This document shows positions 2,447-38,435 of a DNA stretch of 38,435 nucleotides, piece after piece (the first letter of the stretch is position 1; each line of letters opens with the position of its first letter). The stretch comes from Fibrobacteria bacterium (lineage in GTDB: Bacteria; Fibrobacterota; Fibrobacteria; UBA11236): NCBI GenBank assembly GCA_041746255.1, contig JBGTHM010000089.1:1-38435 (forward strand). Reading direction: 5' to 3'. The notes beneath the pieces are model-generated. The model did no database searches, was not told the origin of the DNA, and worked only from the letters and a program-made list of their open reading frames with translations. Made by a program: the position numbers and the translations under genes.

Positions 2447-2453
2447 CGGCGAA

Positions 2454-5066
2454 TCATTTTGGTGAGACCATAAAGCGTAGTGTTGATTCCGCGACGCCGC
2501 CGCGCACATGCCGCAAGAAATAAAGGCCCGATCCCGTTTGAAGGCCCTGCAAACGCACCCGCGTTTGATTGGAAGCGATTTCGCGGCTGAATACCAGCCG
2601 CCCGAAGATATCCCTGATCTCCACCGACCAACCGTCGTTCGGCAGTCCTTCGGGAGAAAAGGAATAAGCCAGTTCGCTCCCGTTGAGGCTCAATCCCGAA
2701 ACCATGCTGGGCCCGGCGGACGAGAAGGAGCGAATCCCGGCTCCGCCGATATTGAGGTTTTCGATATGGATGTTGTTCAGATACGGGCGTATGTTGCCGA
2801 TGCCGTAAAAGGTGAAGCGCAGGGAAGCGACCTGGCCGAGATTAAGAGGCTTGGGTGAGGTCCTCCAAGCGGGCTGCTCAAAACTGCTGAAGGGGAGGCG
2901 GACGCGGTTCCAGTTGGTATTGCCGATGATGACCTGCGCCCGGTAGTAGGCTTTATCGGTAATGCCGGGTTGCTCCAGTTCCACGTAAAAAGTGTCGCCT
3001 TGCGCCGCTTTCACGTCGAAAATAACCGATGACGCGCTTCCGAGGCTGACGGCGCTGCCCGCGGCGTTGAAGGTGGTCCGTATTCCCGCATGCGGATGGG
3101 TTGCTCCGGAGGCGCCGATAAGCCGCGCGGATAAAGCGTTGGAGCCGTTCTCGCCGTCCTTGGTAATTGCGGTGGGGGCCAAAGTGAGGGGATTGGTATA
3201 GGAAGAGCCCCCCGCGTCCTTGTCGTTGAAAGTGGACCAGGTACCACCAAGGGCATTGGTGATGACGCCGCCGTTGAAATTATCGACGAGAACATCCTGG
3301 GCCTTGAAGGGCTGCTTCTTCATGTCGGTGATGAAAGCCTGGGCCGTGGTCCGAGACAAGTGATAGGCGGCTACCTGAGGGATGTCCAGCTTCAAGTTCA
3401 CATTCTCGCCTCCCATAAAGTCGCCTTGGTCGGATTCGCCCGCCCATTGGGCCTGCACCGAGGTCCCCGTGCCGCTGAAGGTTTTTACGGCCTTGCTGGT
3501 GGCGCCCGTGAGCACGACTTTCCAAGCCGCTGATTTTTCCAAGGAGGCGCTGATGGCGAGTTTACCGGTTTCGAGGTTGACGTTGCCGGGCGCGGCGGTC
3601 AGTGGCTGTGTCACCCGGATAAGCCCGGGAGGAGGGTTATGGTAATCGCGTAGGAAGGCGACGGCGCCCACCATGGCGGCATTGTAATCCAGTGCCACCT
3701 CGGTGTTCTTATAATTGCTCGCATTATTGCCGTTAAAGCTCCAGGAGGAATTTTCGGGCTTGCTCGCGTCGAAATTGCCGGTGGGGGTTGGGCCCGAAAC
3801 CACTCCGCCTCTGAGGCGCTTGCCGCTTTGTTTTCCCAGGGTCTGATCGTTGCGGTGATGGGGTTCCGTGGGAGCCTTGGGGCCGAAACCGACTATGTAG
3901 GACTGATTGAATGGGGACATGCCCGCCACCCAATGGGTTTGGGATTGCGCGAATGTGCGATAGCTCTCATTACCGGTAACCATGAAGGCCAAAGCCGCGG
4001 AGAAGGCTACGGCGCTGGCATTGCGGGCATTGCCCCAATCGGCGTTGATGAAAGCGCCCTTGATAAGCGGCGAAGCGTTGGCGGCGGTAACCACGCGGGT
4101 CATGGCCAGGTTGACGTCGGAGAGCCAAGTAGAGGTGGCTTCCACGCCTTGCCGTTTCAACTCGAACGCGGAAAGGTCGCCCACATGGCCATATCCCAAA
4201 GCGAAGAAATGGCTGCCCGCCTGCTGTTGAAAACTGATCGCATGGTTGAGGTAGGATTGCTGTCCGGTGGCGCGGTAGAGTTCGACCCCGGCGGCCGCCA
4301 TTTTGTCCGCGAAATATTTGGTGGAATAGAATTCGCCATTGTTCTGTTGCGCGGAAAGCTTCCGGTTTGCCAACCCAAAGGTAAATGCTTGTTGGGCCTT
4401 GGTGAGGCAAAGAGCGGCATAGGTCGCGTTATGCTTTTTATACAAAGTGGACATGAGCGCCAAGGAGGCGGCATACAGGCCGGCTACATCGGCGCCGGTG
4501 TTGACGGTAGCGCCACGCGGGCTGGTGCGCTGCGAGTTGGCGTAACCGCTTTCCGAAAGCTGCTGGTGGTCCTGTTTCCCATTGCCGACGTCGGTTACCA
4601 CGACTCTGTCGCTGATGACCGCCTTGATCAAATAATCCGTGGCTACCTTGACTTCGCCGAGAATATCCGGAATGCCGTCGGGCTTTCCCGAATAGTTCCA
4701 GCTGTCTAAATCATCATAGGCACTGGGAAATACGTCATATCCTTTTAAAAGCGTGTAAACGCTGAACCCCAGCGGCAATCCGAATTTGACGAAATCGCCG
4801 GCGTCGTACCAACCGCCGCTTAAGTCCTGGCCGTTGTGATTGTCCTGGGAGTGGGGGAAAGGCGAGTTGGAGTAGAAGGGGTTCTTGTTATCCGCGCCTT
4901 TTTCGCCAGCACGTTGATACCCGTAAAACCGGATAAGGAGGTTGTGCAAAGTCTTATAGTCGGCGCTTTGGGCATGAGCCGGAGTGGGCATGGCCTGTAC
5001 GAAGAGCATTGAGGCCAGGGCGCCGACGGCTAATCGACGGGACAAGTTCAAGCGGGTGCGATCCAT
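2454..5066 (-). CDS. GH9 endoglucanase with CIA30/CBM11-like module and C-terminal sorting-type domain
   Basis: DLSGGWYDAGDFVKFGLP, PHHR and NTEVALDYNAA GH9 motifs; signal peptide ending AHA-Q; tail IRDIFGRLVF...SGLYFLR; GAGGA RBS. Confidence 0.93.
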   Translation of the reverse strand: MDRTRLNLSRRLAVGALASMLFVQAMPTPAHAQSADYKTLHNLLIRFYGYQRAGEKGADNKNPFYSNSPFPHSQDNHNGQDLSGGWYDAGDFVKFGLPLGFSVYTLLKGYDVFPSAYDDLDSWNYSGKPDGIPDILGEVKVATDYLIKAVISDRVVVTDVGNGKQDHQQLSESGYANSQRTSPRGATVNTGADVAGLYAASLALMSTLYKKHNATYAALCLTKAQQAFTFGLANRKLSAQQNNGEFYSTKYFADKMAAAGVELYRATGQQSYLNHAISFQQQAGSHFFALGYGHVGDLSAFELKRQGVEATSTWLSDVNLAMTRVVTAANASPLIKGAFINADWGNARNASAVAFSAALAFMVTGNESYRTFAQSQTHWVAGMSPFNQSYIVGFGPKAPTEPHHRNDQTLGKQSGKRLRGGVVSGPTPTGNFDASKPENSSWSFNGNNASNYKNTEVALDYNAAMVGAVAFLRDYHNPPPGLIRVTQPLTAAPGNVNLETGKLAISASLEKSAAWKVVLTGATSKAVKTFSGTGTSVQAQWAGESDQGDFMGGENVNLKLDIPQVAAYHLSRTTAQAFITDMKKQPFKAQDVLVDNFNGGVITNALGGTWSTFNDKDAGGSSYTNPLTLAPTAITKDGENGSNALSARLIGASGATHPHAGIRTTFNAAGSAVSLGSASSVIFDVKAAQGDTFYVELEQPGITDKAYYRAQVIIGNTNWNRVRLPFSSFEQPAWRTSPKPLNLGQVASLRFTFYGIGNIRPYLNNIHIENLNIGGAGIRSFSSAGPSMVSGLSLNGSELAYSFSPEGLPNDGWSVEIRDIFGRLVFSREIASNQTRVRLQGLQTGSGLYFLRHVRGGVAESTLRFMVSPK

Positions 5067-5164
5067 TATTTTCGTTCCTCCTCACTATATAGTGGGCATT
5101 GATCCGCGGATGGTTCAATGGGATTCGCGCCGATATCCCTATCAAGACTCAAATGCTTCAAACA

Positions 5165-5196
5165 CAAAAAAACCTCCACCCTGGGGGGCGGAGGTT
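5165..5196 (-). terminator. Rho-independent terminator
   Basis: On the minus strand, AACCTCCGCCC/GGGTGGAGGTT stem followed by a T run, downstream of 5242..6999. Confidence 0.8.
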
Positions 5197-5241
5197 GAAT
5201 CTGTAAAAATAAGGGCTAATCCCCGTTAATGCGCCTTTCGG

Positions 5242-6999
5242 CTATTTCATGTAGGTAACGGAGGTTTTCTGGGTAAAAGGAACTCCTTGAGCGCTACGGG
5301 TGGTCAAGTTCAGGAAGTAAACGCCATTGGGCAAATTGGAAACCTGCAACTCCAGGTTCCGCTTGAGGCCTTGTCCTGCACTCACAGGCACCCGGGACAA
5401 TACTTTACCACGCATATCGGTCAGTACCAGCATTCCGACGTGGTCGTTGCTCGGTAGGCTGAAAGCCACGCGCATTCCGTTCTGCAGTTTCTCGGCTCCA
5501 AAGCCGCCCTGTGACCGGGAAGCACGCGGCATGATGCTGGCGACCATGACCATGGTGGGGTCAATGGCCGTCAAGCCTATTATTTTCACATTGTCCACGG
5601 CGAGAGATCCGCTAGTCGCAGCGTCGCCCTGGAAAGCCCATTGAAATTTTTCCAGCGCGTTGATCCGAAGCGTTTTGTCGGCGATGAGTTTAACCTCATC
5701 CCAATCGGGCAGAACCAGGTTGGTCCAAGGAACGGTGGCGCTCTTCCATTCGCCGCCGGTGCCGGGTAAAAGAACATGGTGCACAATGCCTGCGCCGAAA
5801 TTAAGGTTGTGCTTCACTTCGAAGCGGATGAAATCCAAGCTGGCGGAGGTTTGATAATCAAAGGAAGCGCCCGTCGAACCGGTAGCGTTCAGGAACTGGG
5901 TTCCCAATTCATCTGAAACCATGGTGCCGACGCCAACGAAAGGCTTGACGGTGTTGGCGCCTTCGACAAATGAAGGGCCGAGGGTGAATTCGATGAATGC
6001 GCCGTCGGTGCTGTTATAGCCTTTGTTACCCTCAATGGCCAATACGGGTGTGGTGGGAGCGGCCGGGTCGACAGTGACACCGCCGAAAATTTCGCTATAC
6101 TCGGTTTGGGAGGTTACGGCCCTATCACCGGCGTCATTATAGGCGAACCAGAAGAAGCCGGCAGCGTTTTGGTTTACGGGGGCGGCATCCATATTCGAGA
6201 GCACCGCGCCTTCTCCGGCGCCGGGAGCGCCTACGCAGGTCATGCAAGCAGTGGGGGGGGTCCATTGATAGCCGTGGACGACGATGTTGTCCAGCCAGAG
6301 TTTGCCGTCGGTGAGACCGGTGTTATTTTCTACACTTATTTTCCACTGAACCTTTTCTACTTGCGTGATGTCAAAAGGATCTCCACCGGGATTCTCAAGT
6401 AGATACCAATTTGGTTGCTTCAACACCGCACTAATTCCTTCGGTACTCAAGGGAATGGAATGGGTTTCCCAGGTGGTGCCGATGGGGAGCTCTATCGTAT
6501 GATACGCGAAATGTCCGGCAACAGTTATAGGATTGGTAGCCACTTCAACAACAACGGTCATAGTTGCGCTGGCCTTGGCATCGAAGGTAATATGGGTGGC
6601 GCCGGTCATGTCTAGAACTTTTCCTTCCGTGATGACTCCGGTACCAATACCGACGAAATTTGGATAGTCACAACCGACACCGGTGGGACAATATTTAGGC
6701 TTGATGGATCCCATGGTGAAATCAAGTAGGGCGGCTTGGCCACCACCATTTCCCACATCTAAGGATTTTGCCGGATCGAATAAAAGTTCTGCACCTGAAA
6801 CAGTAGCACTATTGACAACTGAATTGCCCTTGTCACCTGAATCGTTATAAAAATACCAATAATCAAGAAATTTATTCTGATTAGTGCCGCCTTCGAAGTC
6901 ATCCAGCACGGAAGCGACCTGGGCTGAACCGAATCCCGGCAGCAGCGCAGCCATTGCTATTCCGGCGAAGGCGGTTTTTATTGTCTTGAAATTCTGCAT
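5242..6999 (-). CDS. Secreted non-catalytic protein with two tandem CIA30/CBM11-like modules and a C-terminal sorting-type domain
   Basis: Signal peptide; two similar repeats (LDDFEGGTNQNKFLDYWYFYND...EKVQW...LWLDNI and LSNMDAAPVNQNAAGFFWFAYND...EKFQW...LAVDNV); tail LTDMRGKVL...LPNGVYFLNL; AGGGGAG RBS. Confidence 0.78.
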   Translation of the reverse strand: MQNFKTIKTAFAGIAMAALLPGFGSAQVASVLDDFEGGTNQNKFLDYWYFYNDSGDKGNSVVNSATVSGAELLFDPAKSLDVGNGGGQAALLDFTMGSIKPKYCPTGVGCDYPNFVGIGTGVITEGKVLDMTGATHITFDAKASATMTVVVEVATNPITVAGHFAYHTIELPIGTTWETHSIPLSTEGISAVLKQPNWYLLENPGGDPFDITQVEKVQWKISVENNTGLTDGKLWLDNIVVHGYQWTPPTACMTCVGAPGAGEGAVLSNMDAAPVNQNAAGFFWFAYNDAGDRAVTSQTEYSEIFGGVTVDPAAPTTPVLAIEGNKGYNSTDGAFIEFTLGPSFVEGANTVKPFVGVGTMVSDELGTQFLNATGSTGASFDYQTSASLDFIRFEVKHNLNFGAGIVHHVLLPGTGGEWKSATVPWTNLVLPDWDEVKLIADKTLRINALEKFQWAFQGDAATSGSLAVDNVKIIGLTAIDPTMVMVASIMPRASRSQGGFGAEKLQNGMRVAFSLPSNDHVGMLVLTDMRGKVLSRVPVSAGQGLKRNLELQVSNLPNGVYFLNLTTRSAQGVPFTQKTSVTYMK

Positions 7000-7172
7000 G
7001 AATGCTCCCCTTTGATGCGGATTTCGGGCATTTCCCCGAAGGTTATACTGGTTACCTCTCTTAGTGGGTTATCCTGGAGATTGGGTTCAAAAAAGTTCCG
7101 TGTCGGTTAACTGGAGGCGATTTGAACCGGGTTTGGCCTTTTACCTACCAAAGTGGCATGAGAAATCAAAGT

Positions 7173-8606
7173 ATGCCTTCCTATATCAAAGTCCTACTCC
7201 TCTTGGGGTTTTTCATGTCCCTACCGGCTTTCGCGAATTGGAACCTACCCTACCCCCGACCGGCTAAGTACGATTATTCGGATTTTTACCACCCTTCCGT
7301 TAAATCGGATTTAGTCTCCAACCCCAATTTTTTTAAAGCCGCCATGACCAAAGGTTGGGCGTTTTACAAACAGAATTTCATCATGCAAAATGGCTTGGTC
7401 AACCACCGCCGTGGGGACATTGGCGCCAATGAAGCGGTTTCGGAAGGCCAGGGTTACGGCATGCTGTTAGCATTGCTCAATAATGATCAGGCTACCTTCA
7501 ACCGAATTTTCGAGGCCGCAAACCAGCATATGTGGAACAGTGGGAGAAAGTCTTATTTCATCTGGGACTGGCCATCCAACAAAACGGGAGCTGCCACCGA
7601 TGCCGACCTTGATATCGGTTTAGCTCTGGTTTTCGCGGACGCGCTTCGCGAAGGGGGGCATTGGCAGAATTTCAACAAAGGGGGAGTCACATACAAAAGC
7701 CGGGCGATGGAAATCATCAAATCCCTGCGACAAAACATGACCGCCGAGAATTACCTACTCCCGGGAGATAGTTGGGGGCAGTCGGGCCTGAGAAATTTGA
7801 ACCCAAGTTATTTCGGTACCGGTGCGCTCAGGGTTTTCAATGATTATCAAAATGAGGTCGATTTCAGGCCGGTAATCGCAACTTGCTATCAAATCCTCAA
7901 AAAAATGCCGCAATATTCCAAGGGTCAAGCCCCTGACTGGATCACCAAAGACGGCGGCAAAGGGGATAGAGGTTCTCTGGATATGGGTGCCGATGCCATC
8001 CGAACCCCATTCCGAATCGCCCAAGACGCCCTATGGTATAACTCGCCCGACGCAATACAATATTGCAAGAATACGAAGGGTACTCTGACCGCTTTTAACA
8101 ATGAAAACGCGAATTTTTTGCTGGCTCAAATGGGGTATTATAACGCCAATGGGCGAATGCAAAACGGCACCGCATATTTCGAAAATGCGGCGATGTGGGG
8201 TAGTGGAATCCTTGGTTCCAAGGACAAAAGTTATACGCAACCTGCATTCAGAGGCACCATTTTCCTCCGGATCATCGGCGACGGTAATAATTTTGGCAGC
8301 ACCTCTCTACAAGACCATAAGTACTATTATAAGCAATCCTTAGGGTTGTTGGGATTCGCATTAATGACTGGGCAGTTTCCAAATGTGTTGGATGATATGC
8401 GCAACCCGGTTTCAGTTAAGCGTTCACCTTTACAAGACCTTACTATTCTTGGAAAACAAAATCCAAGAGGGCCAGGCGTTACTCTCAGAGTATTGAATCA
8501 GGATTATTCAATACTGGGTCGTCGAATCGGATCTGGCCTCGGAATTTATTCAAGTCGAGAAGATTTACACATCATCCAAATACTTCCGGGTGAAATTCAG
8601 GACTGA
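7173..8606 (+). CDS. GH8 glycoside hydrolase (endoglucanase/xylanase/chitosanase family)
   Basis: VSEGQGYGML, ATDADLDIGLALVFA, NPSY and DAIRTPFR motifs. ATG 7173 gives signal peptide MPSYIKVLLLLGFFMSLPAFA (alternative start 7158). Confidence 0.92.
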   Translation: MPSYIKVLLLLGFFMSLPAFANWNLPYPRPAKYDYSDFYHPSVKSDLVSNPNFFKAAMTKGWAFYKQNFIMQNGLVNHRRGDIGANEAVSEGQGYGMLLALLNNDQATFNRIFEAANQHMWNSGRKSYFIWDWPSNKTGAATDADLDIGLALVFADALREGGHWQNFNKGGVTYKSRAMEIIKSLRQNMTAENYLLPGDSWGQSGLRNLNPSYFGTGALRVFNDYQNEVDFRPVIATCYQILKKMPQYSKGQAPDWITKDGGKGDRGSLDMGADAIRTPFRIAQDALWYNSPDAIQYCKNTKGTLTAFNNENANFLLAQMGYYNANGRMQNGTAYFENAAMWGSGILGSKDKSYTQPAFRGTIFLRIIGDGNNFGSTSLQDHKYYYKQSLGLLGFALMTGQFPNVLDDMRNPVSVKRSPLQDLTILGKQNPRGPGVTLRVLNQDYSILGRRIGSGLGIYSSREDLHIIQILPGEIQD

Positions 8607-30882: not shown

Positions 30883-33800
30883 GTGCCGCTCAAAACCTAC
30901 ATCCGCCTGGCCGGAACCAACGGATTCCTTCCCGGGCCAATCGACCTTCCCGGTCGTGAGAACGCCTACCTGCTGCTGGAAGGCGCGCACGCCGTGCGCA
31001 TGTTGAGCCGCCGTAGCAACGGTTTTACCGGCACCCGCCACTTCCGCTTCCACGAACCCTTCTTCGCCTCTTTTCCTTTGGACAAAGCCTACCCCTCCTT
31101 GATGGAATGCCTGTGCCATGGCGGCACGTTGCCCGTGGTGGAAATTTCGCTGTGGGATTTGGTGGAGGGTAGCGTCGAGGAAGAGCCGAAGGAAAAGCGG
31201 GTGTTTCTCTTTACGCTTGAGAATGTGCGGCTGACGCAGGTACGGACGCGGATGCGCGAGGCGCGTTTGGACCGGATTCGCGGCGGCAAGTTGATGCAGG
31301 CGCGGGTAGGCATGGTCTATGACAAGGTGACCTGGCTGCATGACGAAGGGTATATCCTTTTCTGGGACAGTCTGAAGGATACGGGCAAGGAAGAGGCCAA
31401 GCCGGAGGAGGATTGGGACGAAGCGGAACCCGCGGCGGCGCCTGAGAAAAAGGCCGTGGAGGTGTTGTTGCAAAACCCTCTGTGGGACGTGGCGGAAGTG
31501 GGCTTCAACGAGGAGGCGACGCTGTCGGTTGACTGCGAACTGCCGGAGGAACACAAAAGCCGCAAGCGGGTGGAGTTCGTGCTTTTCGCCAAGACACCGA
31601 AGGGGCCCGAACAAATTGCCAAAGCCGACGGGTTTACCGAGAACGGACGCGCGACATGTAAGATGCCGGTGTATAAGCCGCGCTACCGTGGGGAAGACGG
31701 CGAGGCGCTTAAAGAGGTGGAATATTTTTTCACGGCCAAGCATACCCTGTCGGAGCCGGTGGATTCGGGAGCCAAGCCCGAGGGCGTGAAGTCGGTGGAT
31801 AAGATGGCGGATCCGCTGATTGATACGCATGTGGTGGCGGGCGTGACCTTCGGTTTCGATTCCAGCTTTTTGCATCCGGACCAGATTCCGAAATTAAAAG
31901 AGTTGTGCGAGAAAATCGCGGCCTGGAGGAAGAATTATCCGGACGGTAAGATGGCGTTGTTCGGGCATACGGATGCGGTGGGCAAGGAAACGTATAACAA
32001 AGGGCTGTCGGAGCGGCGGGCGCGTTCGGTGTATGCGTTTTTAATGGGCGATCCGAGCGTGTGGGAGGAATTGCATAAGGAGGAGAGTTGGAGTTTTGCC
32101 TGCACGCAGGCTTTGGTGAAACAGGCGGGTTACGACCCCGGGGCAATTGATGGGGCGGATGGGCCTAAGACGCAAGGGGCGGTGAAGGATTTTCAGGAGG
32201 CGCAGGGTCTCAAGGCCGATGGGATTGCCGGGCCGCAGACGCGGGAGGCGCTGTTCATCGAATTCATGCGGGCGGTTCCGAAAGCGCAGAAATTGGCCCT
32301 GACGCCCAAACACTTCGACAAGGTGGACGGGCAACCGCATATGGGTTGCAGCGAGTTCAATCGGGTGGAGGTGACGGAGGATAAGAGCGAGGCGAACCGG
32401 CGGGTGACGGTGGTGCTGGTGAAGTCGAGCCAGACGTTTCCGGTGGAGTATCCCTGTAAGCGCGGGAATATCGGGCCGTGCCAGGGCCAGGTGAAGAAGG
32501 CGGGAGAGCGGCGGACGAAGGGGTTTGGGTGCGCGTTTTATGATGGGTTGGTGGTTGAGAAAAAGGGCAACAATGTAAAACCCCCTATAAATCGGAAAGT
32601 GAAATTTGTTGGAATTACCGATGAGCAGGTCAAGCAGTATGTTAATCTCCCCTCAGGTAAAATAGGTAATGGAATTGAACGGTTTTTAGAAGTTGAAATT
32701 GAAGGCGCTGCCGATGGGCAGCCTGTTTTTTGGACCGTTTCAGGAAATGAAAATAATAGCAAAAGGACTGATCCTAAAACGGGAATTCGAGCATCCGAAC
32801 CCGAAGCGCTAAAACCTTTCAAAATCGAGCCACCGTTAAATGCTCCCAGAGTCGAAATGAGCACAAAGGTTAAGAATAAAAAATCTTCCATCATCCTTAG
32901 TTGTGGGGTCGCAGGAGGAGATAGCTTTATCGTAGAAGCGGGGGTATCCAAAGAGAAAATGGATGTAAAAGTTACTGTAGTTAATTGGAGAAAGCTGGAA
33001 TACGAAATTATTCAACCCCTTTCCAAGGGCGAACATCGCCTTACCGATTACACCGTTTTCAATGCAGATAAAACTCCCGGACTGTCTGTAAAATCGAAGG
33101 ATTATTTAAAAAAGGTTTTGGGGAATTGTTTTGTTGAATTTGACCAAGCACACGCCGACGTCTTTGGAAAAAAGGATATTCCACTTAATGGAGAGCACAA
33201 CATTTTTGATGGGAAGTATCTCAGAAAAAACCCTGGGAAGAAAATTGTGGTTCTTTCATTTGATCAAACTGAAGAAATTCTACGCAATAAAGGAAAACAT
33301 CAAAAAAACCATCGTACTGCCTCCATGGTTTGGTGCGATTATTTGGCCGATTTTATTGAGTGGGACGAATTATTTTCAGGCATAGTTGAACCAGCTGATC
33401 TACTTACCGAGCGGGTAATATTTGAAAGAGCGATTGATAATGCCTTAGGCTATCCACACGGAAGCTACTCAATATCCCAAATTCAATGGGGCGCAACTAA
33501 ATGGCAAGATGTTTCCTCAGGCATCCCAATATGGAAAGAAATTTCATCACCATCGGATCCTGGCTGGGAATTTAAAAAGGGCGGTATTCTATCAAATGAA
33601 GCAGAAATAAAAGACCATATTCAATTTAAAGATTTTCGGACAGTTGCGATTCGATTTCCGGATTCAAAACCGAATTATCCTGGTAAGATAATTGAAAAGA
33701 ATATTGGAGGCCAATTCACCGATAAAGGTGCGATAATCGGACTGACAATAAGGATCCGTGGGATAGCGTGCGAAATGGATACGAATGGTGCAGCATTAAA

Positions 33801-34215
33801 TGGTGATATTTGGATGAATACATTTGCAGGAGAAGCTCATGATGTAGGCATGGCTGCAGTTATTGCCCATGAGCTTGCACATAACATGGGCCAAGCCTAT
33901 GCTGATAAATCGATTGACTCCGTTTTTGGCCGACCTACGGCTAAACAGATTCCGGGAGTCCCCTTCCCAAAGGGAGTACCTGAAGGTGATATGTACGGTG
34001 GAAAAGGCCATCAGGGAACACATTGTGCCAATGGAGTAAAAAACAAAAGTGCCAAATCCTTCCATACCACAGTGGCAGCCTTAGAGCGAACGTGCATAAT
34101 GTTTGGCGCTTCAGGAATGGATGATCCAAGTGAGTATTCATTTTGTACAGATTGTACGTCGTACATTAAGGCAGAAAATATTAGTGATATTCGAAAATCT
34201 TGGAGTTCCTTATGA
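30883..34215 (+). CDS. Hcp/TssD-like + OmpA-like + peptidoglycan-binding + HEXXH metallopeptidase-like fusion; putative polymorphic toxin
   Basis: aa 1-165 follow the Hcp pattern (HEPF...LDKAYPSLMECLCHGGTLPVVEISLW...FTLENVRL...VGMVYDKVTWLH...WDS). OmpA motifs FGFDSSFL, GHTDAVGKETYNKGLSERRARSV, ANRRV. PG-binding GYDPGAIDGADGPKTQGAVKDFQEAQGLKADGIAGPQT. HELAHNMG at 33868 with HC, CIM and FCxxC downstream. Confidence 0.8.
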   Translation: MPLKTYIRLAGTNGFLPGPIDLPGRENAYLLLEGAHAVRMLSRRSNGFTGTRHFRFHEPFFASFPLDKAYPSLMECLCHGGTLPVVEISLWDLVEGSVEEEPKEKRVFLFTLENVRLTQVRTRMREARLDRIRGGKLMQARVGMVYDKVTWLHDEGYILFWDSLKDTGKEEAKPEEDWDEAEPAAAPEKKAVEVLLQNPLWDVAEVGFNEEATLSVDCELPEEHKSRKRVEFVLFAKTPKGPEQIAKADGFTENGRATCKMPVYKPRYRGEDGEALKEVEYFFTAKHTLSEPVDSGAKPEGVKSVDKMADPLIDTHVVAGVTFGFDSSFLHPDQIPKLKELCEKIAAWRKNYPDGKMALFGHTDAVGKETYNKGLSERRARSVYAFLMGDPSVWEELHKEESWSFACTQALVKQAGYDPGAIDGADGPKTQGAVKDFQEAQGLKADGIAGPQTREALFIEFMRAVPKAQKLALTPKHFDKVDGQPHMGCSEFNRVEVTEDKSEANRRVTVVLVKSSQTFPVEYPCKRGNIGPCQGQVKKAGERRTKGFGCAFYDGLVVEKKGNNVKPPINRKVKFVGITDEQVKQYVNLPSGKIGNGIERFLEVEIEGAADGQPVFWTVSGNENNSKRTDPKTGIRASEPEALKPFKIEPPLNAPRVEMSTKVKNKKSSIILSCGVAGGDSFIVEAGVSKEKMDVKVTVVNWRKLEYEIIQPLSKGEHRLTDYTVFNADKTPGLSVKSKDYLKKVLGNCFVEFDQAHADVFGKKDIPLNGEHNIFDGKYLRKNPGKKIVVLSFDQTEEILRNKGKHQKNHRTASMVWCDYLADFIEWDELFSGIVEPADLLTERVIFERAIDNALGYPHGSYSISQIQWGATKWQDVSSGIPIWKEISSPSDPGWEFKKGGILSNEAEIKDHIQFKDFRTVAIRFPDSKPNYPGKIIEKNIGGQFTDKGAIIGLTIRIRGIACEMDTNGAALNGDIWMNTFAGEAHDVGMAAVIAHELAHNMGQAYADKSIDSVFGRPTAKQIPGVPFPKGVPEGDMYGGKGHQGTHCANGVKNKSAKSFHTTVAALERTCIMFGASGMDDPSEYSFCTDCTSYIKAENISDIRKSWSSL

Positions 34216-35249
34216 GCATTCGATCGATATATGGTTTTGTAGTAGCTTTAATTTTTTTTTCTTGGGGATTTAATATGAGCATTGATAAAGGCCCACTGGG
34301 ATTTTCAGGCCAGGATTATTGGAACGCTAAGAATATTTCTTTAGGAGATATTTCAGGCCCTTGGCTTTGGGATGAGATTTCAAAAATTGTTATCGACGTT
34401 CCGAGCAAAGTCGACTTAGGCGAACACTCTAGCATACCGTTAATTTGCTTAAGAACAGGATCAAAAGAAAAGTTTAGACTCTTTTCACTTAAACTCACTT
34501 CGCAATTAGTTTTGGTACATTTGGAATCAGGGACTATTATAATTGACAAGCTTACAAAGTCACCGGATAGACTAAACACCCATAAAACTTCTCCTGGCTT
34601 TATAAGTGATAGAGCTCAAGTAAATCTATTAGAAAAAATTGATCCAAGCTTGGCGATTGGAAAATTTGTCGCCAAGATAATTTGTGGACCAGAAGCCTCG
34701 AATCAACGCTTTTTTGAAATTATTCCAGAAAAAAGAAACGAAGGAATGACTGGATCCCTTTCTGCGTTAGAAACATTCCGCCAAGTAGGAGCACCCCCAA
34801 CGAATTATCACTATTTTGATTCACTAGAGATACAACAATTGCCGCTCGACACTGATGTTAAAAGAGTTTCCAAATGGATTATTTCCAAGGCCGCAACAGG
34901 AAGTTCATCGAAATTTCAGGTCCGGCTTTCCTTCAAGGTTCAAGGTCTTCCCAAATTTGTTTTTCCCCAAAAGAAAGTAATTCTTGATTCAAAGAAGCGA
35001 AAGATTTATGGATACATTCCGATTAGTTTCATTGGATTTGATGAGGATAGGCAGTTGGTTGTCCAGCAGTCGCTTGATATGCCGATTTTTATTAAACCTG
35101 AGGGCGAGTCCGATTCGCCTTGGTTATCGGGACACGTAATAATGGATGTATCCGCAATGCTACCGGCTGCTGGAAAAATGTCCGCACTTTCACTTTGGGT
35201 GTTTAGTATGGACCAGAGTGGAATGCTTGAATTTGAAATATTGAAGTAA
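34212..35249 (+). CDS. Exported hypothetical protein; putative cognate immunity protein
   Basis: ATG 34212 overlaps the upstream TGA (ATGA); hydrophobic N-terminus IYGFVVALIFFSWG; low GC like the adjacent tip; has a downstream paralog. Confidence 0.7.
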   Translation: MSIRSIYGFVVALIFFSWGFNMSIDKGPLGFSGQDYWNAKNISLGDISGPWLWDEISKIVIDVPSKVDLGEHSSIPLICLRTGSKEKFRLFSLKLTSQLVLVHLESGTIIIDKLTKSPDRLNTHKTSPGFISDRAQVNLLEKIDPSLAIGKFVAKIICGPEASNQRFFEIIPEKRNEGMTGSLSALETFRQVGAPPTNYHYFDSLEIQQLPLDTDVKRVSKWIISKAATGSSSKFQVRLSFKVQGLPKFVFPQKKVILDSKKRKIYGYIPISFIGFDEDRQLVVQQSLDMPIFIKPEGESDSPWLSGHVIMDVSAMLPAAGKMSALSLWVFSMDQSGMLEFEILK

Positions 35250-35252
35250 ATC

Positions 35253-35456
35253 ATGATCTGTACCTCGTTTGACAAAGTCGCATTGGGACGCAAAGCCGTA
35301 AGTGGTCCATGGGGCGGAGATGGCGGCACCGTTCCCCACAACCTGATTGTCATTGATTACAACAATACCATCCACACAATGTGCGTCTTTCATGAACTGG
35401 GCCATATCATGAATCCGCGCAAAGGTTCTTTCTGATATTCGGAATCTTGGCCATGA
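35253..35456 (+). pseudogene. Orphan remnant of an alternative HEXXH toxin tip (internally deleted and frameshifted)
   Basis: CVFHELGHIMN (HELGH at 35391-35405) is joined out of frame to AKVLSDIR..SWP*, which matches the toxin end AENISDIRKSWSSL*. DNA TGATATTCGGAATCTTGG (35433) versus TGATATTCGAAAATCTTGG (34185). Confidence 0.72.
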
Positions 35457-35465
35457 GGAAACCTT

Positions 35466-36188
35466 ATGAGGAATTTTTGTATTCATGGGTTGATTGTATT
35501 TTTTGTTGGAGATACGATAACTATGGCAAATGAAATCTGACCCTTGAATCTTTCCGGAGACCAATATTGGAATATGCCGCTTAGTCATACGGGTGACATC
35601 GGAATGGATAGGTTGGGAGAGATCGATGGTATGCTATTGGACGCCCCTCCCCGGATTTTCCTGGACCGACATTCCACAATTCCATTGATCGCACTTAGAA
35701 CTTCCCCGAAGTTCAAAGCGCAGAATTCATCGTTGGCAAAAACTGCACAGTTAACGATTGTTCATTTGGAAACCGGGATTACTCAAGTGGTAAAATTCCA
35801 AAAGAGCCCCGACATTGAAGATCCCAATCCACCCTCTCCCGGCTGGATAAATGAATGGGTGGAGGAGGAACTGAAATCTTTTGTCAACCTTGGCCCGGAA
35901 ATCGGAAAATACCTTTTAAGGCTTCTTGATGGACCTGAAGCATCGAATTCCAGGGTGATTCAGATTTTTCCCGAACCGAATTCAGAAAATAGCCAAGAGA
36001 CGAAGGAAAAATTGCATCACTTAAGAATAGGCTCCAGTGGAATGCTCATGGATTTCATTGAAAGACGAATTTTTTATGAAGCCTTTGTCGCTATTGTTGC
36101 AGCAATCGTGGGGTTTGCCTTTGGGTGGCTTTATATTATTGTACGGATTTTAAAAAGAAGGTCTTCTGTTGTTGTAAGGCAGGCATAA
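35466..36188 (+). pseudogene. Disrupted and truncated paralog of the putative immunity gene
   Basis: MRNFCIHGLIVFFVGDTITMANEI*PLNLSGDQYWN has an in-frame TGA at 35538 where the paralog reads GPLGFSGQDYWN. Shared HSxIPLIxLRT, QLxxVHLExG, KSPD, SPG, IGK, GPEASN. Homology ends near 36030. Confidence 0.8.
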
Positions 36189-36221
36189 AAAGGTTCTCCT
36201 AGTTATGGGACTAGGAGAACC
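36187..36221 (-). terminator. Rho-independent terminator
   Basis: GGTTCTCCTAGT/ACTAGGAGAACC perfect 12-bp stem with a T run on the minus strand, just after 36232..36438. Confidence 0.85.
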
Positions 36222-36231
36222 CAAAAGGGAT

Positions 36232-36438
36232 TTAGGATGTATGACATGTTGGGGAGCATGTAGCACATCCATCGGCTGTCCTATACGTTAGCTTGGCCTT
36301 TTCCACCGCACTTCGGCAATTGGAATGCCAGCCTAAATCCTTTTTACTTTGGATTCGACTTAACCAAGCACATCCTTCTTCATGGACTTCGTGATCTCCA
36401 TTTGGCTGCGCGGTATTGTTTACATAATAATTTGGCAT
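36232..36438 (-). CDS. Small Cys/His-rich protein, probably metal-binding
   Basis: YYVN...NGDHEVH...C...C...DGCATCSPTCHT; GGAGG RBS; has its own terminator. Confidence 0.8.
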   Translation of the reverse strand: MPNYYVNNTAQPNGDHEVHEEGCAWLSRIQSKKDLGWHSNCRSAVEKAKLTYRTADGCATCSPTCHTS

Positions 36439-36740
36439 AATGCCCTCCGATATTTTTATTGGATGTAGCGAATAGAAGAATCTCTATAGCTTTAACCAAT
36501 GTAACGCCTGATACGGACAAATTTTGTCCCTGTGAAGAATTCCTTCAAAATTTTTTAATCCCCAACATTTCCGCAGAAATACTCGTAACTCGTTGATATT
36601 AAATAAAATGCGGCGAATTTGAGCCCTATATCGATATATCGCGATATGTTTAAGTGCTCATTTGAGCAGTAGGGTAACATGGAAATTGCTAATTTTAAAA
36701 GGGTGAGCAATGTCGCTCTACCAATCGAAAGGTTCTAATT

Positions 36741-36977
36741 ATGAGTGGAAGAAAAGTGATTCACGTTGTTCCTAATAAGAAGGAGGGTGGATGGGATGTA
36801 AAACAACAAGGGAAATCCGAACCCATAAGCCACCATCGGTTAAAGGAACGTGCTGTAGACAGAGGAAAGAGTGAGGCAAAGGATGCCCCAAAGGGGCAAA
36901 TTAAAATCCATAAGCAGGGTGGTCAGATCCAAACTGAACACACTTACGGGGGAGAGCCCAACGGTATTCCTGGTTAG
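36741..36977 (+). CDS. DUF2188-like small basic protein (copy 1)
   Basis: HVVP...GGWDVK...IHKQGGQIQTEHTYG pattern. Confidence 0.85.
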   Translation: MSGRKVIHVVPNKKEGGWDVKQQGKSEPISHHRLKERAVDRGKSEAKDAPKGQIKIHKQGGQIQTEHTYGGEPNGIPG

Positions 36978-36982
36978 GATTG

Positions 36983-37020
36983 AGTAGGTCCAGAACTTCC
37001 ATTTTCTGGACCTACTTTTT
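36983..37020 (+). terminator. Rho-independent terminator
   Basis: AGTAGGTCCAGAA/TTCTGGACCTACT 13-bp stem followed by TTTT. Confidence 0.85.
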
Positions 37021-37057
37021 ACTAAAATTTTCATTTCATAAATAATTAGGAGATGGT

Positions 37058-37345
37058 GTGTCAAAAAGAAGAGTCGTTCATGTAGTGCCAAATAAAAAGG
37101 GAGGCTGGGATGTAAAGAAACAAGGCGAACCTAATCCTGTTAGCCACCATAGGCTCAAAGAAAGAGCCGTGGAATCTGGGAGAAAAGTTGCAAAAGATTC
37201 ATATAGTGGACAATTAAAAATCCACAAGCAGGATGGCAGAATTCAAGCTGAACATACCTACGGCGGAGAAATCGCAAAGAGAAGCACTGTACGAAAGAAG
37301 AAAATATGGGGTGGAACGGATAATACAGGACCAGAATTAAAATGA
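37058..37345 (+). CDS. DUF2188-like small basic protein (copy 2, C-terminally extended)
   Basis: 51 of 72 aligned residues identical to copy 1 by hand count; AGGAG RBS before GTG. Confidence 0.85.
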   Translation: MSKRRVVHVVPNKKGGWDVKKQGEPNPVSHHRLKERAVESGRKVAKDSYSGQLKIHKQDGRIQAEHTYGGEIAKRSTVRKKKIWGGTDNTGPELK

Positions 37346-37740
37346 AATTAAGCAGTTTCCTAAATAAGTTTTATACACATTCTAACCATGCTAGTAACGC
37401 GGCAAGGCAACTTTCTTTTGCAGGAATAGCAATAGCATGGATTTTTCGCCAAAGTAATGGTGAAAAGAATGTGCTTGCGATCTCACTAATTTGGGCGATG
37501 ACGCTATTTGCTTTTTCTTTACTGCTTGATTTGCTTCAATATTTTGTTAGTTCAATTATTTGGGGGTGTTTTCATAGGAAATATGAGGATCAAGGTAAAC
37601 CTCCTGATTTTGAAATCAAAGCGCCTTCCAAATTGAACAAATTCGGGTATGGTTGCTACTATACCAAGATTATATCAGTTCTAGCTGGTTATGTTTTTGT
37701 CATTACATTTTTGCTTTCTACACTTGTAAAGCAAAATTAG
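37342..37740 (+). CDS. Hypothetical membrane protein (about 3 hydrophobic segments)
   Basis: RQLSFAGIAIAWIF, LIWAMTLFAFSLLLDLLQYF, IISVLAGYVFVITFLL; ATGA overlap with the upstream gene. Confidence 0.75.
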   Translation: MKLSSFLNKFYTHSNHASNAARQLSFAGIAIAWIFRQSNGEKNVLAISLIWAMTLFAFSLLLDLLQYFVSSIIWGCFHRKYEDQGKPPDFEIKAPSKLNKFGYGCYYTKIISVLAGYVFVITFLLSTLVKQN

Positions 37741-37759
37741 CTATGAAGGAGAGTCTCAC

Positions 37760-38200
37760 ATGGAAGAATGGAAACAAGCAGCAGAAAGAGTTGAATTTGA
37801 GCATATTTATCGGGAAATTCAGTTAATTAAAAGAAATTTTTCAAACATACTACAATCATGTATGGATTTAGAGATAGCAAACAATTCTCCTGAATTCATT
37901 GCATTCAAAAAGGAGTCAGATAGGTACTCATATCGTTTTATGGATAATGAATATTTCATGTATTTGAATATTACCATACAAAAGGATGAAGATTGGAGAC
38001 GCGTAAAACCAATAGGTATTGTGGAAATATGGACCAAAATGGGGATTGAAAATAAGCCAAGAAAGGTATTCCAATTTACTATTCCACCCGATGGATTAGT
38101 CCCAGAAATAGGCTCGGGGGACTTTCGAAGGAATAAATATTATGAAGAAATCTTAGGGTATATTTTAGGCAATACTTTAATTGACATGGTTGATTCATAA
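37760..38200 (+). CDS. Hypothetical protein
   Basis: 146-aa ORF in AT-rich DNA with AAGGAG RBS; no recognised motif. Confidence 0.7.
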   Translation: MEEWKQAAERVEFEHIYREIQLIKRNFSNILQSCMDLEIANNSPEFIAFKKESDRYSYRFMDNEYFMYLNITIQKDEDWRRVKPIGIVEIWTKMGIENKPRKVFQFTIPPDGLVPEIGSGDFRRNKYYEEILGYILGNTLIDMVDS

Positions 38201-38254
38201 ATTGGGATTGGGCCTTGTTCTTATAAATAATTTTACATGAACAAGGAGACTATT

Positions 38255-38297
38255 ATGGATAATGAAAATGAACGTGAACCAATGACTCATTCGGAAT
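38255..38297 (+). pseudogene. 5' stub of a gene interrupted by an insertion sequence
   Basis: AAGGAG RBS then ATG GAT AAT GAA (MDNENEREPMTHSE); the frame runs into the repeat block and stops at 38365. Confidence 0.5.
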
Positions 38298-38435
38298 TGC
38301 AAAATCCGGTTCATGGTGACCGGCTAATCCGATTCAAAGTGACCGGCCGATCCGGTTCAAGATGACCGGTTCGGACGATTGACCCGAGGGTGAAAATCCG
38401 GTTCAAAGTGACCGGTTTTCGTCCTTCTCAATCCA
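38298..38435. mobile_element. Terminus of an IS21-family-like insertion sequence
   Basis: Begins 5'-TG followed by four 20-bp direct repeats ATCCG(G/A)TTCAnnnTGACCGG at 38304, 38327, 38350 and 38396 (spacing 23, 23, 46), with a GC jump. No transposase in the window. Confidence 0.72.

Follow-up and report, generated by a model that had tools for sequence, protein, structure and literature searches.

Organization of the locus

The window, i.e. the whole stretch of 38,435 nucleotides of DNA that was analysed, derives from a cellulose-degrading Fibrobacterota bacterium and carries, towards its end, a putative effector gene, a putative immunity gene (immA1) and two downstream remnants (Table 1). 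The ORF of 1,110 amino acids described in a first-pass annotation was recovered and encodes, in order, an Hcp domain, an acidic linker, an Ig-like domain, an OmpA-like domain with an inserted PG_binding_1 domain and a module of 550 aa. Paralog comparison showed that the effector start is kept in four paralogs of the genome. The extension of roughly 950 aa on the tube-protein domain, as estimated previously, consists of a stalk of ~400 aa and a tip of 550 aa. The other 14 large ORFs of the window are glycoside hydrolase and housekeeping genes and include no further T6SS gene, as had been observed.

The GC profile drops from ~0.60 to ~0.40 near position 32500 (residue 560) and remains low to the window end; hence the low-GC part of the protein comprises the last 550 aa and not the tip alone. 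Of the low-GC HEXXH tip proposed earlier, the motif (HELAH, aa 996-1000, nt 33868-33882) and the low GC content were both found, but the low-GC variable region reaches well beyond the tip.

Table 1. Features of the effector locus, in positions of the window
Feature	Positions	Strand	Basis
Effector gene, 1,110 aa, GTG start, without signal peptide	30883..34215	+	ORF reading of the sequence
Full-length, divergent Hcp (TssD) domain, aa 1-163	30883..31371	+	Pfam, PDB sequence match, model fold
Acidic Pro/Lys-rich linker, aa 164-189	31372..31449	+	Read from sequence
Family-specific trunk domain, aa 190-310	31450..31812	+	Conservation in relatives
OmpA-like peptidoglycan-binding domain with inserted PG_binding_1, aa 311-560	31813..32562	+	PF00691, PF01471
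Ig-like domain, first part of the low-GC variable module, aa 561-704	32563..32994	+	AF2 model, VIA matches
Predicted adamalysin/ADAM-like zinc peptidase fold with large inserts, aa 705-1110	32995..34212	+	VIA, profile search
Putative immunity gene immA1, 345 aa, ATGA-coupled, N-terminal export-type hydrophobic segment	34212..35249	+	Sequence, synteny
60-aa HELGH remnant of a compact type-B peptidase tip, cut at both ends	35253..35435	+	tblastn
Decayed immunity paralog immA2	35466..36188	+	Paralogy to immA1, in-frame TGA, family alignment

Hcp domain and constant trunk

The Pfam model PF05638 (T6SS_HCP) matched aa 7-153 at 26.0 bits (cut-off: 23.5) over model positions 2-129 of 129, and TIGR03344 matched the domain with an E value of 6.7e-9, which falls below the cut-off of that model. 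In a sequence search of the PDB the N-terminus matched the solved Hcp proteins 4hkh (E 4.6e-8) and 5mxn (E 6.7e-6), and the top Foldseek matches of its AF2 model (pLDDT 75) were all Hcp (TM 0.65-0.72; 6a2v: E 4.7e-11, TM 0.70). By Pfam, PDB sequence and modelled fold alike, the N-terminus that had been called Hcp-like is therefore Hcp. The fused domain shares 24-27% identity with the canonical Hcps of the family and is collinear with them over the full length, with 22 invariant columns common to both. At such a divergence, and with the modest pLDDT of its model, it may have lost the capacity to stack into a tube.

In G019, the second genome of this genus, three copies of Hcp with ~80% identity reach contig ends, and two of the three continue in frame into the trunk. 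Judged from the sequences, the fusion of Hcp to the stalk is real, as it occurs in the four paralogs of the genome and in these G019 copies. It is confined to one genus; elsewhere Hcp is replaced by a short disordered leader, which measures 48-119 aa (median 68.5) in the 50 relatives whose N-terminus is complete. The linker, which we infer to be disordered, occupies the stretch after the Hcp alignments stop and before those of the trunk begin.

The first trunk domain (aa 190-310) has no Pfam match, is kept in 50 of the 55 relatives P0004-P0058 and is probably an Ig-like beta-sandwich. The OmpA-like and PG-binding motifs reported previously both scored above the cut-off, with PF00691 at aa 322-388 (36.4 bits, cut-off: 27.2) and PF01471 at aa 411-457 (55.6 bits, cut-off: 23), and the junction motif FGCAFYDGLVVE closes the OmpA-like domain.

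The four paralogs have the same architecture to aa 560 and unrelated C-termini after it. Their DNA is 83-91% identical up to 32558-32563 and unrelated beyond, the upstream limit of homology lying ~170 nt before the start in C123 and C80 and ~10 nt before it in C125. GC content falls at this junction in all four, and each C-terminus is trailed by different small genes. Among the 88 database relatives listed, the alignment ends at query residues 556-563 in 30 (27 of the 55 relatives P0004-P0058). Rather than keeping one C-terminus, the paralogs and the database relatives thus share the trunk and diverge at one junction; a constant N-terminal region, a sharp junction and unrelated tips, the hallmark of polymorphic toxins, are all present at the sequence level.

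Predicted peptidase tip, putative immunity gene and downstream remnants

The variable module was modelled by AF2 with a pLDDT of 94.6. Its Ig-like domain, which is also found in type-B toxins, had VIA matches to the PorA N-domain (6kjk, Z 9.0), complement MG domains and invasin/intimin. For the domain that follows, the best match in the wide VIA search was atrolysin (1dth; Z 11.5, 177 aa, rmsd 3.9), with ADAM22 (Z 11.2), ADAM8 (10.8), archaemetzincin (10.0), ulilysin (9.7) and also fragilysin among the further matches; metzincins took all of the top 16 places and accounted for 16 of the best 20. A profile search against the PDB likewise matched the domain to ADAM8 (E 0.0025). No Pfam peptidase family scored above threshold for the tip, and a Foldseek search of the PDB with the whole variable module matched no peptidase. 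The models favour the zincin fold suggested for the tip, in the form of a metzincin catalytic fold, and the C-terminal extension carries a putative toxin, a predicted adamalysin-like zinc peptidase in its last ~400 aa.

The likeness to adamalysin/ADAM (M12B) and other metzincins (1dth, 4dd8, 2cki, 2x7m) lies in the catalytic fold (Z 9.7-11.5 over 168-182 aligned residues) and in the HExxHxxG helix. In the canonical metzincin motif, HExxHxxGxxH/D, the third zinc ligand is His or Asp. Here, the extended motif reads HELAHNMGQAY, with Tyr at the third-ligand position as in the family consensus; since the canonical ligand is absent from both, the tip is called metzincin-like and not a member of the metzincin clan. 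It further differs from metzincins in having more than 200 residues of inserts and a separate conserved cluster, an invariant H-x-G-x-H-C plus three further Cys. Across 51 aligned sequences H996, E997, H1000, G1045, H1047, C1048 and C1091 are invariant (HExxH in 51/51), and the invariant H1043/H1047 cluster may supply the third zinc ligand. A Cys-Ile-Met-Phe-Gly stretch is also conserved, with C1071 nearly invariant, and is a candidate Met-turn, placed where we take adamalysins to have theirs. The peptidase module has 285 relatives at E ≤ 0.001, and the tip module is also C-terminal in proteins that have at least three further N-terminal architectures, all of them lacking an obvious signal peptide.

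The ATG of immA1 at 34212 overlaps the effector stop TGA (34213-34215) as ATGA. The coupled exported gene noted at first sight was thereby confirmed, with a hydrophobic export-type N-terminus and, in homologs, a lipobox-like motif. This motif reads Trp-Ser/Gly-Cys in three of six aligned homologs (L028 and L026 at 6653-7687 and 3607-4779); the L025 homolog has Asn-Ser-Cys at the same place, and immA1 itself has Phe where several homologs have the lipobox Cys. No Pfam or NCBIfam family was found for immA1 and no relative in a word-based protein search. Among the 296 phylum genomes, immA matches occur in 10 others, and in eight of these 10 immA directly follows a match to the type-A tip on the same strand, so that tip and downstream gene do travel together; the expected adjacency is missing in G006 and G057. 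An adjacent immA is lacking in five of the 13 other tip-matching genomes (G006, G270, G280, G281, G284). On this synteny, a putative cognate immunity gene lies immediately downstream of the effector and co-varies with the tip.

Prediction of the toxin-immA1 complex, run with alignments built for this analysis and with agreement between runs in at least 1% of contacts and partner pLDDT of at least 60, gave a median score of 0.45 (runs: 0.76, 0.45, 0.00), the best control scoring 0.00. In calibration, 116 of 157 solved complexes and 2 of 215 mismatched pairs attained this mark; with scores of 0.60 or less, only 18 of the 157 and both of the mismatched pairs did so. The prediction hints at physical binding of immA1 to the tip.

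Further downstream, the second HEXXH fragment and the paralog of the immunity gene were both found as described. The HELGH ORF of 60 aa has no significant match to the main toxin; in tblastn it matches part of the interior of 15 other family toxins at 59-71% identity (E 1e-15 to 2e-20), including P0010, P0011, P0012, P0014, P0017, P0018, P0021, P0023, P0024 and P0045, at ~aa 740-800 in toxins of ~880 aa. Of the 12 other genomes with a match, 11 have it within frames of 472-1003 aa; in G109 the frame is 138 aa long. The ORF of immA2 (35544..36188) shares 38% identity with immA1 over 162 aa (E 1e-31). Its signal segment (ATG at 35466) is severed by an in-frame TGA at 35538-35540, and the family match runs over 35487-36002 with this one TGA inside. 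Of the family, only the N-terminal ~165 aa, or half, remain, followed by a hydrophobic tail of unrelated sequence. The gene is closer to immunity genes of type-A toxins elsewhere than to the partners of type-B tips, the type of the fragment. What had been taken as an orphan cassette does contain a tip fragment and an immunity paralog, but as a decayed remnant that, judging by its reading frames, is probably non-functional.

Resident envelope proteins typically carry OmpA-like and PG_binding_1 domains, and the OmpA region of long-form TssL was faintly matched in NCBIfam (E 0.014). The effector could accordingly be an envelope enzyme of the producer itself, i.e. a peptidoglycan-anchored peptidase that remodels the wall, for example for T6SS passage, with the downstream gene as its regulator or inhibitor. 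We regard this as very improbable, given that none of the four paralogs, nor the relatives, has a signal peptide, that unrelated C-termini with different small genes after each are found on the four paralogs, that the tips are of low GC and exchangeable, that remnants and arrays occur, and that the module has a patchy distribution (14 of 296 genomes).

T6SS association, delivery and known systems

The genome search suggested earlier recovered TssC, VgrG and Hcp fusions (the four paralogs), but not PAAR (PF05488). TssF, TssG, a canonical Hcp and a putative TssE, the last named only from its length and from being flanked by hcp and tssF, are encoded on C26; TssK, TssL, TssM and TssC on C62; and VgrG on C97. 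The trunk domain occurs in 24 of the 296 phylum genomes and the type-A tip in 14, all of them TssC-positive, as are 115 of the 296, and the relatives are non-independent, the trunk representing 8 genera.

None of the effector loci examined adjoins T6SS genes, which would fit an Hcp fold that serves as a ring-forming scaffold outside any T6SS, the protein reaching its site by another route. This has very little probability in our estimate: the effector is without a signal peptide, the genome encodes a T6SS, the trunk family is found in TssC-positive genomes only (24/24) and a Tae4-family T6SS amidase gene adjoins one of the paralogs.

We propose, with a probability of about three in four, that the protein is a specialised ("evolved") Hcp effector of the T6SS encoded in the same genome, built as a polymorphic toxin with an exported immunity partner. 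The initial reading of a polymorphic Hcp toxin locus is thus supported, on sequence and model evidence. The Hcp domain would couple the protein to the T6SS tube, and the constant trunk would be a stalk that probably holds the delivered protein on the target peptidoglycan. The exchangeable low-GC module (Ig-like domain and HELAH peptidase) would be the toxin; since the immunity protein is exported, the peptidase is expected to act in the periplasm of neighbouring bacteria. The immunity protein would shield kin by binding the peptidase, for which synteny is conserved and binding is faintly suggested. Recombination at the trunk/tip junction would bring new tips, and the 60-aa type-B remnant and broken immA2 may be leftovers of earlier or extra cassettes. 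In these terms, the locus would be an unusually large version of a known type of bacterial weapon, with ~950 residues of wall-binding stalk and swappable putative metalloprotease on a tube protein.

The size of the extension, ~105 kDa, is a counterpoint to Hcp delivery, being far above the reported Hcp-borne cargo. The largest reported Hcp1 cargo is Tse3 (44.4 kDa), and enlarging Tse1 by 30 kDa prevented both sheath assembly and secretion (PMC8262886). The fused Hcp might instead be a built-in adaptor or chaperone of a T6SS effector, e.g. as a tube cap or docked under VgrG, or the protein might transit partly unfolded, by a route unlike that of Hcp-ET. Besides cargo size, its far divergence from the canonical Hcp that the genome retains for the tube, and the disordered leader that replaces it outside the genus, would fit docking rather than a structural role. 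Even so, the domain is collinear with canonical Hcp, keeps the 22 invariant columns and, in its model, superposes on tube Hcp, and we consider this route unlikely.

As a specialised Hcp effector, the protein resembles Hcp-ET1 to ET5 of Enterobacteriaceae (Ma et al. 2017, as cited in PMC11148199 and PMC8262886) and the Hcp1-fused toxins, a short, unstalked polymorphic class (Zhang et al. 2012, PMC3482391), in that, as outlined in those texts, an N-terminal Hcp is joined to a C-terminal toxin, the immunity gene lies downstream and tips vary. It differs from the Hcp1-fused toxins, as there described, in the ~400 aa of conserved stalk and 550-aa tip (~950 aa after Hcp). The lineage is Fibrobacterota, and the same stalk family occurs elsewhere without Hcp. 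The kind of weapon is already known; what is new is the putative toxin/immunity family, together with an unusually large cargo.

The VgrG2b C-terminal metallopeptidase of the Pseudomonas aeruginosa H2-T6SS, with its immunity protein PA0261 (Wood et al. 2019, PMC6899460), is likewise an HEXXH zinc peptidase on a secreted T6SS core component, where it follows a small beta-sandwich domain. Its site of action is the periplasm, and its exported immunity protein is encoded directly downstream; the present locus has the same arrangement, and its action is presumed to be periplasmic. Measured against that description, the carrier here is Hcp, the peptidase is adamalysin-like, ~400 aa long and with a Cys-rich C-terminal part, and the immunity family is unrelated to PA0261 and ~345 aa long. 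VgrG2b was not among the PDB profile matches or the 50 VIA matches listed, but the two may still be related.

With Rhs/CDI loci, as portrayed in the cited sections of PMC3482391, the locus shares a constant N-terminal region, a sharp junction and unrelated tips that are individually paired with an immunity gene, as well as displaced tip fragments and extra immunity genes downstream. By the same description it differs in that Rhs/YD and FHA repeats are missing, as are PAAR, VENN and a PxxxxDPxGL-type junction; the junction is FGCAFYDGLVVE, and the orphan part is a decayed remnant. At G047:C43, tip fragments and immunity genes form an array that is easier to recognise.

Domain architecture and the polymorphic junction

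The effector is encoded by a single ORF, and its upstream neighbour is a divergently oriented gene of the aminodeoxychorismate/anthranilate-synthase type (coordinates are listed in the table). The remaining genes of the window encode GH9, GH8, GH94, GH116 and PL14 enzymes, a PNPase and a DeaD helicase, which is consistent with the cellulose degrader proposed in the first-pass annotation; no T6SS gene besides the effector was found among them, as had been read from the sequence. Two database relatives are stated to come from Fibrobacteres/Fibrobacterota bacteria.

The N-terminus, earlier described as Hcp-like, was identified as Hcp by Pfam, by PDB sequence matches and by structure comparison. 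The whole Pfam model T6SS_HCP was matched at aa 7-153 (26.0 bits; cut-off 23.5), NCBIfam returned the TssD subfamily (E 6.7e-9, below cut-off) together with many OmpA/Pal-type models, and the first 170 aa matched EAEC Hcp1 (4hkh, E 4.6e-8, residues 5-163) and V. cholerae Hcp (5mxn, E 6.7e-6). The fused domain is collinear with the canonical Hcps of the bacterial family, with 24-27% identity and 22 invariant columns in common. When its AlphaFold2 (AF2) model (pLDDT 75, pTM 0.70; 16-sequence alignment) was searched with Foldseek, Hcp structures occupied ranks 1-30 (best 6a2v, E 4.7e-11, TM 0.70; 4hkh, TM 0.72/0.81), and the lower rows included the Hcp1-fusion constructs 4ksr and 7o42 and the AFP baseplate 6rao. 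An acidic, Pro/Lys-rich linker follows, leading to a family-specific domain (aa ~190-310) for which no Pfam match was found. The OmpA and peptidoglycan-binding motifs noted previously are both Pfam domains, OmpA at aa 322-388 and PG_binding_1 at aa 411-457, the latter inserted into the OmpA-like domain.

The genome that carries the window (G000; 130 contigs, 4.59 Mb) encodes a single canonical Hcp of 162 aa besides four Hcp fusions, located on contigs C89 (the window), C123, C80 and C125. When aligned, the four fusions are near-identical as far as the motif FGCAFYDGLVVE (aa ~560), after which the sequences are unrelated, with tails of ~550, ~340, ~90 and ~75 aa. At the DNA level the paralogs are 83-91% identical from ~170 nt (C123, C80) or ~10 nt (C125) upstream of the start codon to a common end point, at which the GC content drops in all four. 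Among the 88 proteins listed, the alignment ends at effector residues 556-563 in 30 (27 of the 55 relatives P0004-P0058), and the others have further sub-modules in common. Polymorphic toxins, the class to which the locus had been assigned, are defined by just this pattern of a shared region that runs to one junction and continues into unrelated tails; the homologs do not keep one invariant C-terminus. The effector belongs to a known kind, the specialised Hcp and polymorphic T6SS effectors, and opens no new category.

The metzincin-like tip, its putative immunity gene and decayed cassettes

A search of a 1.84-billion-protein library with the tip (aa 561-1110) yielded 285 relatives at E ≤ 0.001, and in all full-coverage relatives the module is C-terminal. 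Residues H996, E997, H1000, G1045, H1047, C1048 and C1091 are invariant in a 51-sequence alignment, and H1043, C1071 and C1088 are nearly so. Sequence comparison gave little on the fold: Pfam had no match on the 550-aa tip and only sub-threshold matches on the last 204 aa (Reprolysin, E 0.097; eCIS_core, 0.18; M48, 0.22), phmmer against PDB sequences returned only a chance-level guanine deaminase (E 1.5), and the family profile matched ADAM8 (E 0.0025) and snake-venom adamalysins weakly at the HExxH helix. Minority labels of protein-atlas clusters (M43, M10, Reprolysin, Astacin) were taken as a lead only.

The AF2 model of the tip is of high quality (pLDDT 94.6, pTM 0.91). Searched whole against the PDB with Foldseek, it gave no peptidase, all matches being to Ig-like folds in the first domain with TM <0.2. 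The peptidase fold emerged through VIA alone, an exhaustive structure search independent of Foldseek, in which metzincins ranked top: atrolysin C (1dth, Z 11.5 over 177 aa, rmsd 3.9), ADAM22 (11.2), ADAM8 (10.8), archaemetzincin (10.0) and ulilysin (9.7), with further matches to ADAM10, TACE, ADAMTS5, mirolysin and fragilysin. The same search matched the first ~145 tip residues to Ig-like/MG domains. The zincin tip anticipated in the first-pass annotation is thereby upheld at the level of predicted fold. The extended metzincin motif is not present, the sequence being HELAHNMGQAY with Tyr at the position of the third zinc ligand both here and in the family consensus, and the domain is for this reason called metzincin-like.

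Proteins of at least three other N-terminal architectures carry this tip too, and no evident signal peptide was seen in any of them. Related modules stand behind two further N-termini. Relatives P0059-P0075 begin with a LysM-like segment (MGF.KR...DGDTL) ahead of the OmpA/PG_binding core, and in P0090-P0140, dozens of proteins of 700-800 aa, a signal-less domain (M..DVFE.S.L...Y.VWP) precedes the type-A tip, that is, the peptidase tip of the present effector. Both N-termini may be further delivery domains.

The gene immediately downstream, immA1, overlaps the effector stop codon and encodes a protein with a hydrophobic N-terminal segment and Phe at the lipobox Cys position. It belongs to no Pfam or NCBIfam family, and a word-based protein search returned no relative besides itself. 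A six-frame search of the 296 genomes of the phylum set recovered homologs in 10 other genomes and the type-A peptidase in 13 others. In eight (G001, G003, G004, G007, G037, G046, G047 and G058) the immA homolog follows the peptidase homolog directly in the 3' direction and in the same orientation, at a gap of 2-270 nt or overlapping it. ORF maps of six loci confirmed the toxin-immA pairs, including that of G007, whose toxin has a quite different N-terminus. The two families lie 3 kb apart in reverse order in G006, immA occurs in G057 without a type-A tip, and four genomes (G270, G280, G281 and G284) carry distant tips (30-33% identity) with no immA family.

Three of six aligned immA homologs have a lipobox-like Trp-Ser/Gly-Cys, and the homolog at locus L025 has Asn-Ser-Cys. 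Export of the immunity protein would place the action of the toxin in the periplasm, an arrangement for which PMC6899460 gives experimental demonstration in the pair VgrG2b/PA0261. When the tip was modelled in complex with mature immA1, the median score was 0.45 (runs of 0.76, 0.45 and 0.00; best control 0.00), with at least 1% contact agreement between runs and a partner pLDDT of at least 60, which lends weak support to binding. In calibration 116 of the 157 solved complexes reached the mark, as did 2 of 215 mismatched pairs; only 18 of the 157 solved complexes, but both mismatched pairs, did so with scores of 0.60 or less. The locus would define a new family of metzincin-like, putatively antibacterial toxins and a new family of exported immunity proteins.

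An orphan toxin/immunity cassette had been proposed downstream of this pair. The second HEXXH fragment and the immA1 paralog (immA2) on which the proposal rested are real, but both are decayed and probably no intact pair remains. The 60-aa HELGH ORF does not resemble the main toxin to a significant degree. Its matches, at 59-71% identity (E 1e-15 to 2e-20), fall on an internal segment of 15 family members, at ~aa 740-800 in those of ~880 aa; these members bear a shorter tip, type B, whose relationship to type A is distant (22% identity, E 1e-4). Both ends are missing from the fragment in the window; the fragment type was found in 12 other genomes, within frames of 472-1003 aa in 11 and in a frame of 138 aa in G109. 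Its neighbour immA2 is 38% identical to immA1 over 162 aa (E 1e-31) and retains no more of the family than its N-terminal ~165 aa, before an unrelated hydrophobic tail; a frameshift was ruled out as the lesion, an in-frame TGA following the signal segment instead.

That fragment and immA2 form a cognate pair is doubtful, because an immA gene lies within 2 kb of the fragment type in just 2 of the 12 genomes (G057 and G058) and because immA2 is closest to the immA genes of type-A toxins (46-49% identity to those of G001 and G003, to which immA1 is 31-32% identical). In the mapped G057 locus a further gene stands between the type-B toxin and the immA-family gene. The fragment and immA2 are most readily explained as what remains, in decayed form, of displaced or additional cassettes. 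A fuller array was seen on contig C43 of G047, in the order toxin, immunity, tip fragment, immunity, transposase-like gene, immunity, immunity.

Probable link to the T6SS and possible modes of delivery

A T6SS is present in the genome. One end of contig C26 carries TssF, TssG, Hcp and a putative TssE, the last assigned solely from its length and from where it lies, between the hcp and tssF genes; TssK, TssL, TssM and TssC are encoded on C62 and VgrG on C97. The genome search outlined in the first-pass annotation thus recovered TssC, VgrG and three more Hcp fusions; PAAR (PF05488) was not found in this genome, nor were T6SS genes found beside the homologous loci of other genomes. Across the phylum TssC occurs in 115 of 296 genomes and 44 of 70 genera and is missing from the two largest sampled genera (0/101 and 0/19 genomes), so that the T6SS is common in less-studied Fibrobacterota lineages and missing from the best-sampled genera. 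The trunk-specific domain was detected in 24 of the 296 genomes, spread over 8 genera, and the type-A tip in 14, all TssC-positive. Within the bacterial family the trunk was matched in 20/20 genomes of five genera and in 0/12 of a sixth, where TssC occurs in 2/12. As related genomes are not independent, this co-occurrence is supportive of a T6SS link and not decisive. The tallies of Hcp, trunk, TssC and fragment type include one unpublished genome (G008), on which alone no claim hangs. The locus suggests that non-Fibrobacter lineages of the phylum are heavily armed with predicted T6SS effectors.

Relatives of the fused Hcp at ~80% identity were found only in G019, the second genome of the same genus, where all three copies reach contig ends and two run on into the trunk without a change of frame. 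Hcp is fused to every one of the four trunk copies in G000 and to both resolvable copies in G019. Throughout the remaining 30 genomes of the family Hcp matches are confined to frames of 93-240 aa, and a word-based search of 5.8 billion proteins, a weak one, found longer proteins with this Hcp only among the paralogs of G000 itself. Elsewhere the trunk is preceded by a low-complexity leader of 48-119 aa (median 68.5; 50 of 55 relatives with a complete N-terminus), and 45 of the 50 leaders have a DPF-like motif, defined by a loose pattern, in their first 16 residues. Leader and Hcp domain may do the same job of coupling the effector to the tube. We tentatively propose, at a probability of about 0.3, a previously undescribed Fibrobacterota T6SS delivery module in which a disordered leader is followed by an Ig-like and OmpA/PG-binding stalk with exchangeable tips, the leader having been replaced in one genus by a covalent Hcp. 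If so, the leader would normally dock this effector family to Hcp, the replacement would offer a testable handle on the loading of the whole family, and multi-domain effectors of >100 kDa could travel with the Hcp tube, perhaps threaded through its lumen one domain after another, well above the accepted limit of ~45 kDa.

Independently of this proposal, the sequence data establish which domains are present, the polymorphic junction, a toxin-immunity gene order conserved between genomes and a T6SS in the genome. The likely mechanism is that the effector is exported with the T6SS tube and retained on peptidoglycan through its OmpA-like/PG_binding_1 stalk, that the tip cleaves a periplasmic or wall-linked target, and that exported immA1 neutralises the tip. 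That an injected protease should carry a peptidoglycan-binding stalk hints at action directed to the cell wall or to proteins anchored in it. The statements on cargo in PMC8262886 place Hcp cargo at up to 44.4 kDa (Tse3), with sheath assembly blocked when 30 kDa was added to Tse1, and the Hcp1-fused polymorphic toxins, as characterised in PMC3482391, are a short, unstalked class. In contrast to these small toxins, the present effector joins a complete Hcp to ~950 residues and exists in four copies per genome. Set against the cargo limits, an extension of ~105 kDa would require that the protein be incorporated sparsely, with its domains strung out in the lumen, that it take a terminal position, or that it act as an adaptor. 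Either the rule on size does not hold, or Hcp is able to act as a docking adaptor. Keyword searches of the literature returned no description of this architecture, this toxin family or Fibrobacterota T6SS effectors.

Neighbourhoods of the Hcp fusions

The rest of the low-GC island of the window, up to the contig end, holds a tandem pair of DUF2188 genes and several small ORFs without known function. The C125 paralog ends ~75 aa past the junction and a 423-aa ORF without a Pfam family begins 2 nt later; this ORF may be a toxin that has become separated from its carrier, or else an immunity gene. On C80, where the fusion has only ~90 aa past the junction, a stand-alone ORF of the Tae4 family of T6SS amidase effectors lies 670 nt from the paralog and convergent to it, with a WG-repeat lipoprotein-like gene between the two. 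The region directly 5' of the C123 paralog resembles a defence island, encoding an MmeI-type restriction-modification enzyme, a DEAD/ResIII helicase and a T5orf172/MUG113 protein.

Coordinates of the features discussed, in the window (C89) and on other contigs of the same genome
Feature	Contig or locus	Position	Strand	Remark
Effector ORF	C89	30883..34215	+	1,110 aa
Low-GC region	C89	~32500 to 38435 (contig end)		GC ~0.40; ~0.60 before it
End of paralog DNA homology	C89	32558-32563		
immA1	C89	34212..35249	+	ATG 34212; 345 aa; overlaps effector stop TGA
HELGH ORF (type-B fragment)	C89	35253..35435		60 aa
immA2	C89	35466..36188	+	ATG 35466; in-frame TGA 35538-35540
DUF2188 gene	C89	36741-36977		E 1e-17
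DUF2188 gene	C89	37058-37345		E 4e-19
C125 fusion paralog	L009	8101-10008		
423-aa ORF	L009	10010-11281		
Tae4-family amidase ORF	L008 (C80)	6739-7191	+	150 aa; PF14113, E 8e-20
WG-repeat lipoprotein-like gene	L008 (C80)	7153-7833	-	
Defence-island-like genes	L007 (C123)	953-7191		
Palindromic repeat	C89	30714-30754		~40 nt
Palindromic repeat, paralog contigs	C123, C80, C125	C123:9272 and 14213; C80:9984 and 6482; C125:81951		
Palindromic repeat, 7 other sites	G000	C73:3731, C56:5974, C96:5970, C41:2005, C116:6861 and 7427, C102:77792		

A repeat composed of a near-perfect ~24-nt palindrome (GAACTTAGCAT..ATGCTAAGTTC) followed by AGCGGAAAA sits 130-170 nt 5' of all four Hcp-fusion genes, and none was found near the T6SS core clusters of the genome. 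Further copies close off the distal side of the low-GC cassette, in direct orientation in C123 and inverted in C80; the repeat could be an operator, a mobile-cassette boundary or a dispersed repeat.
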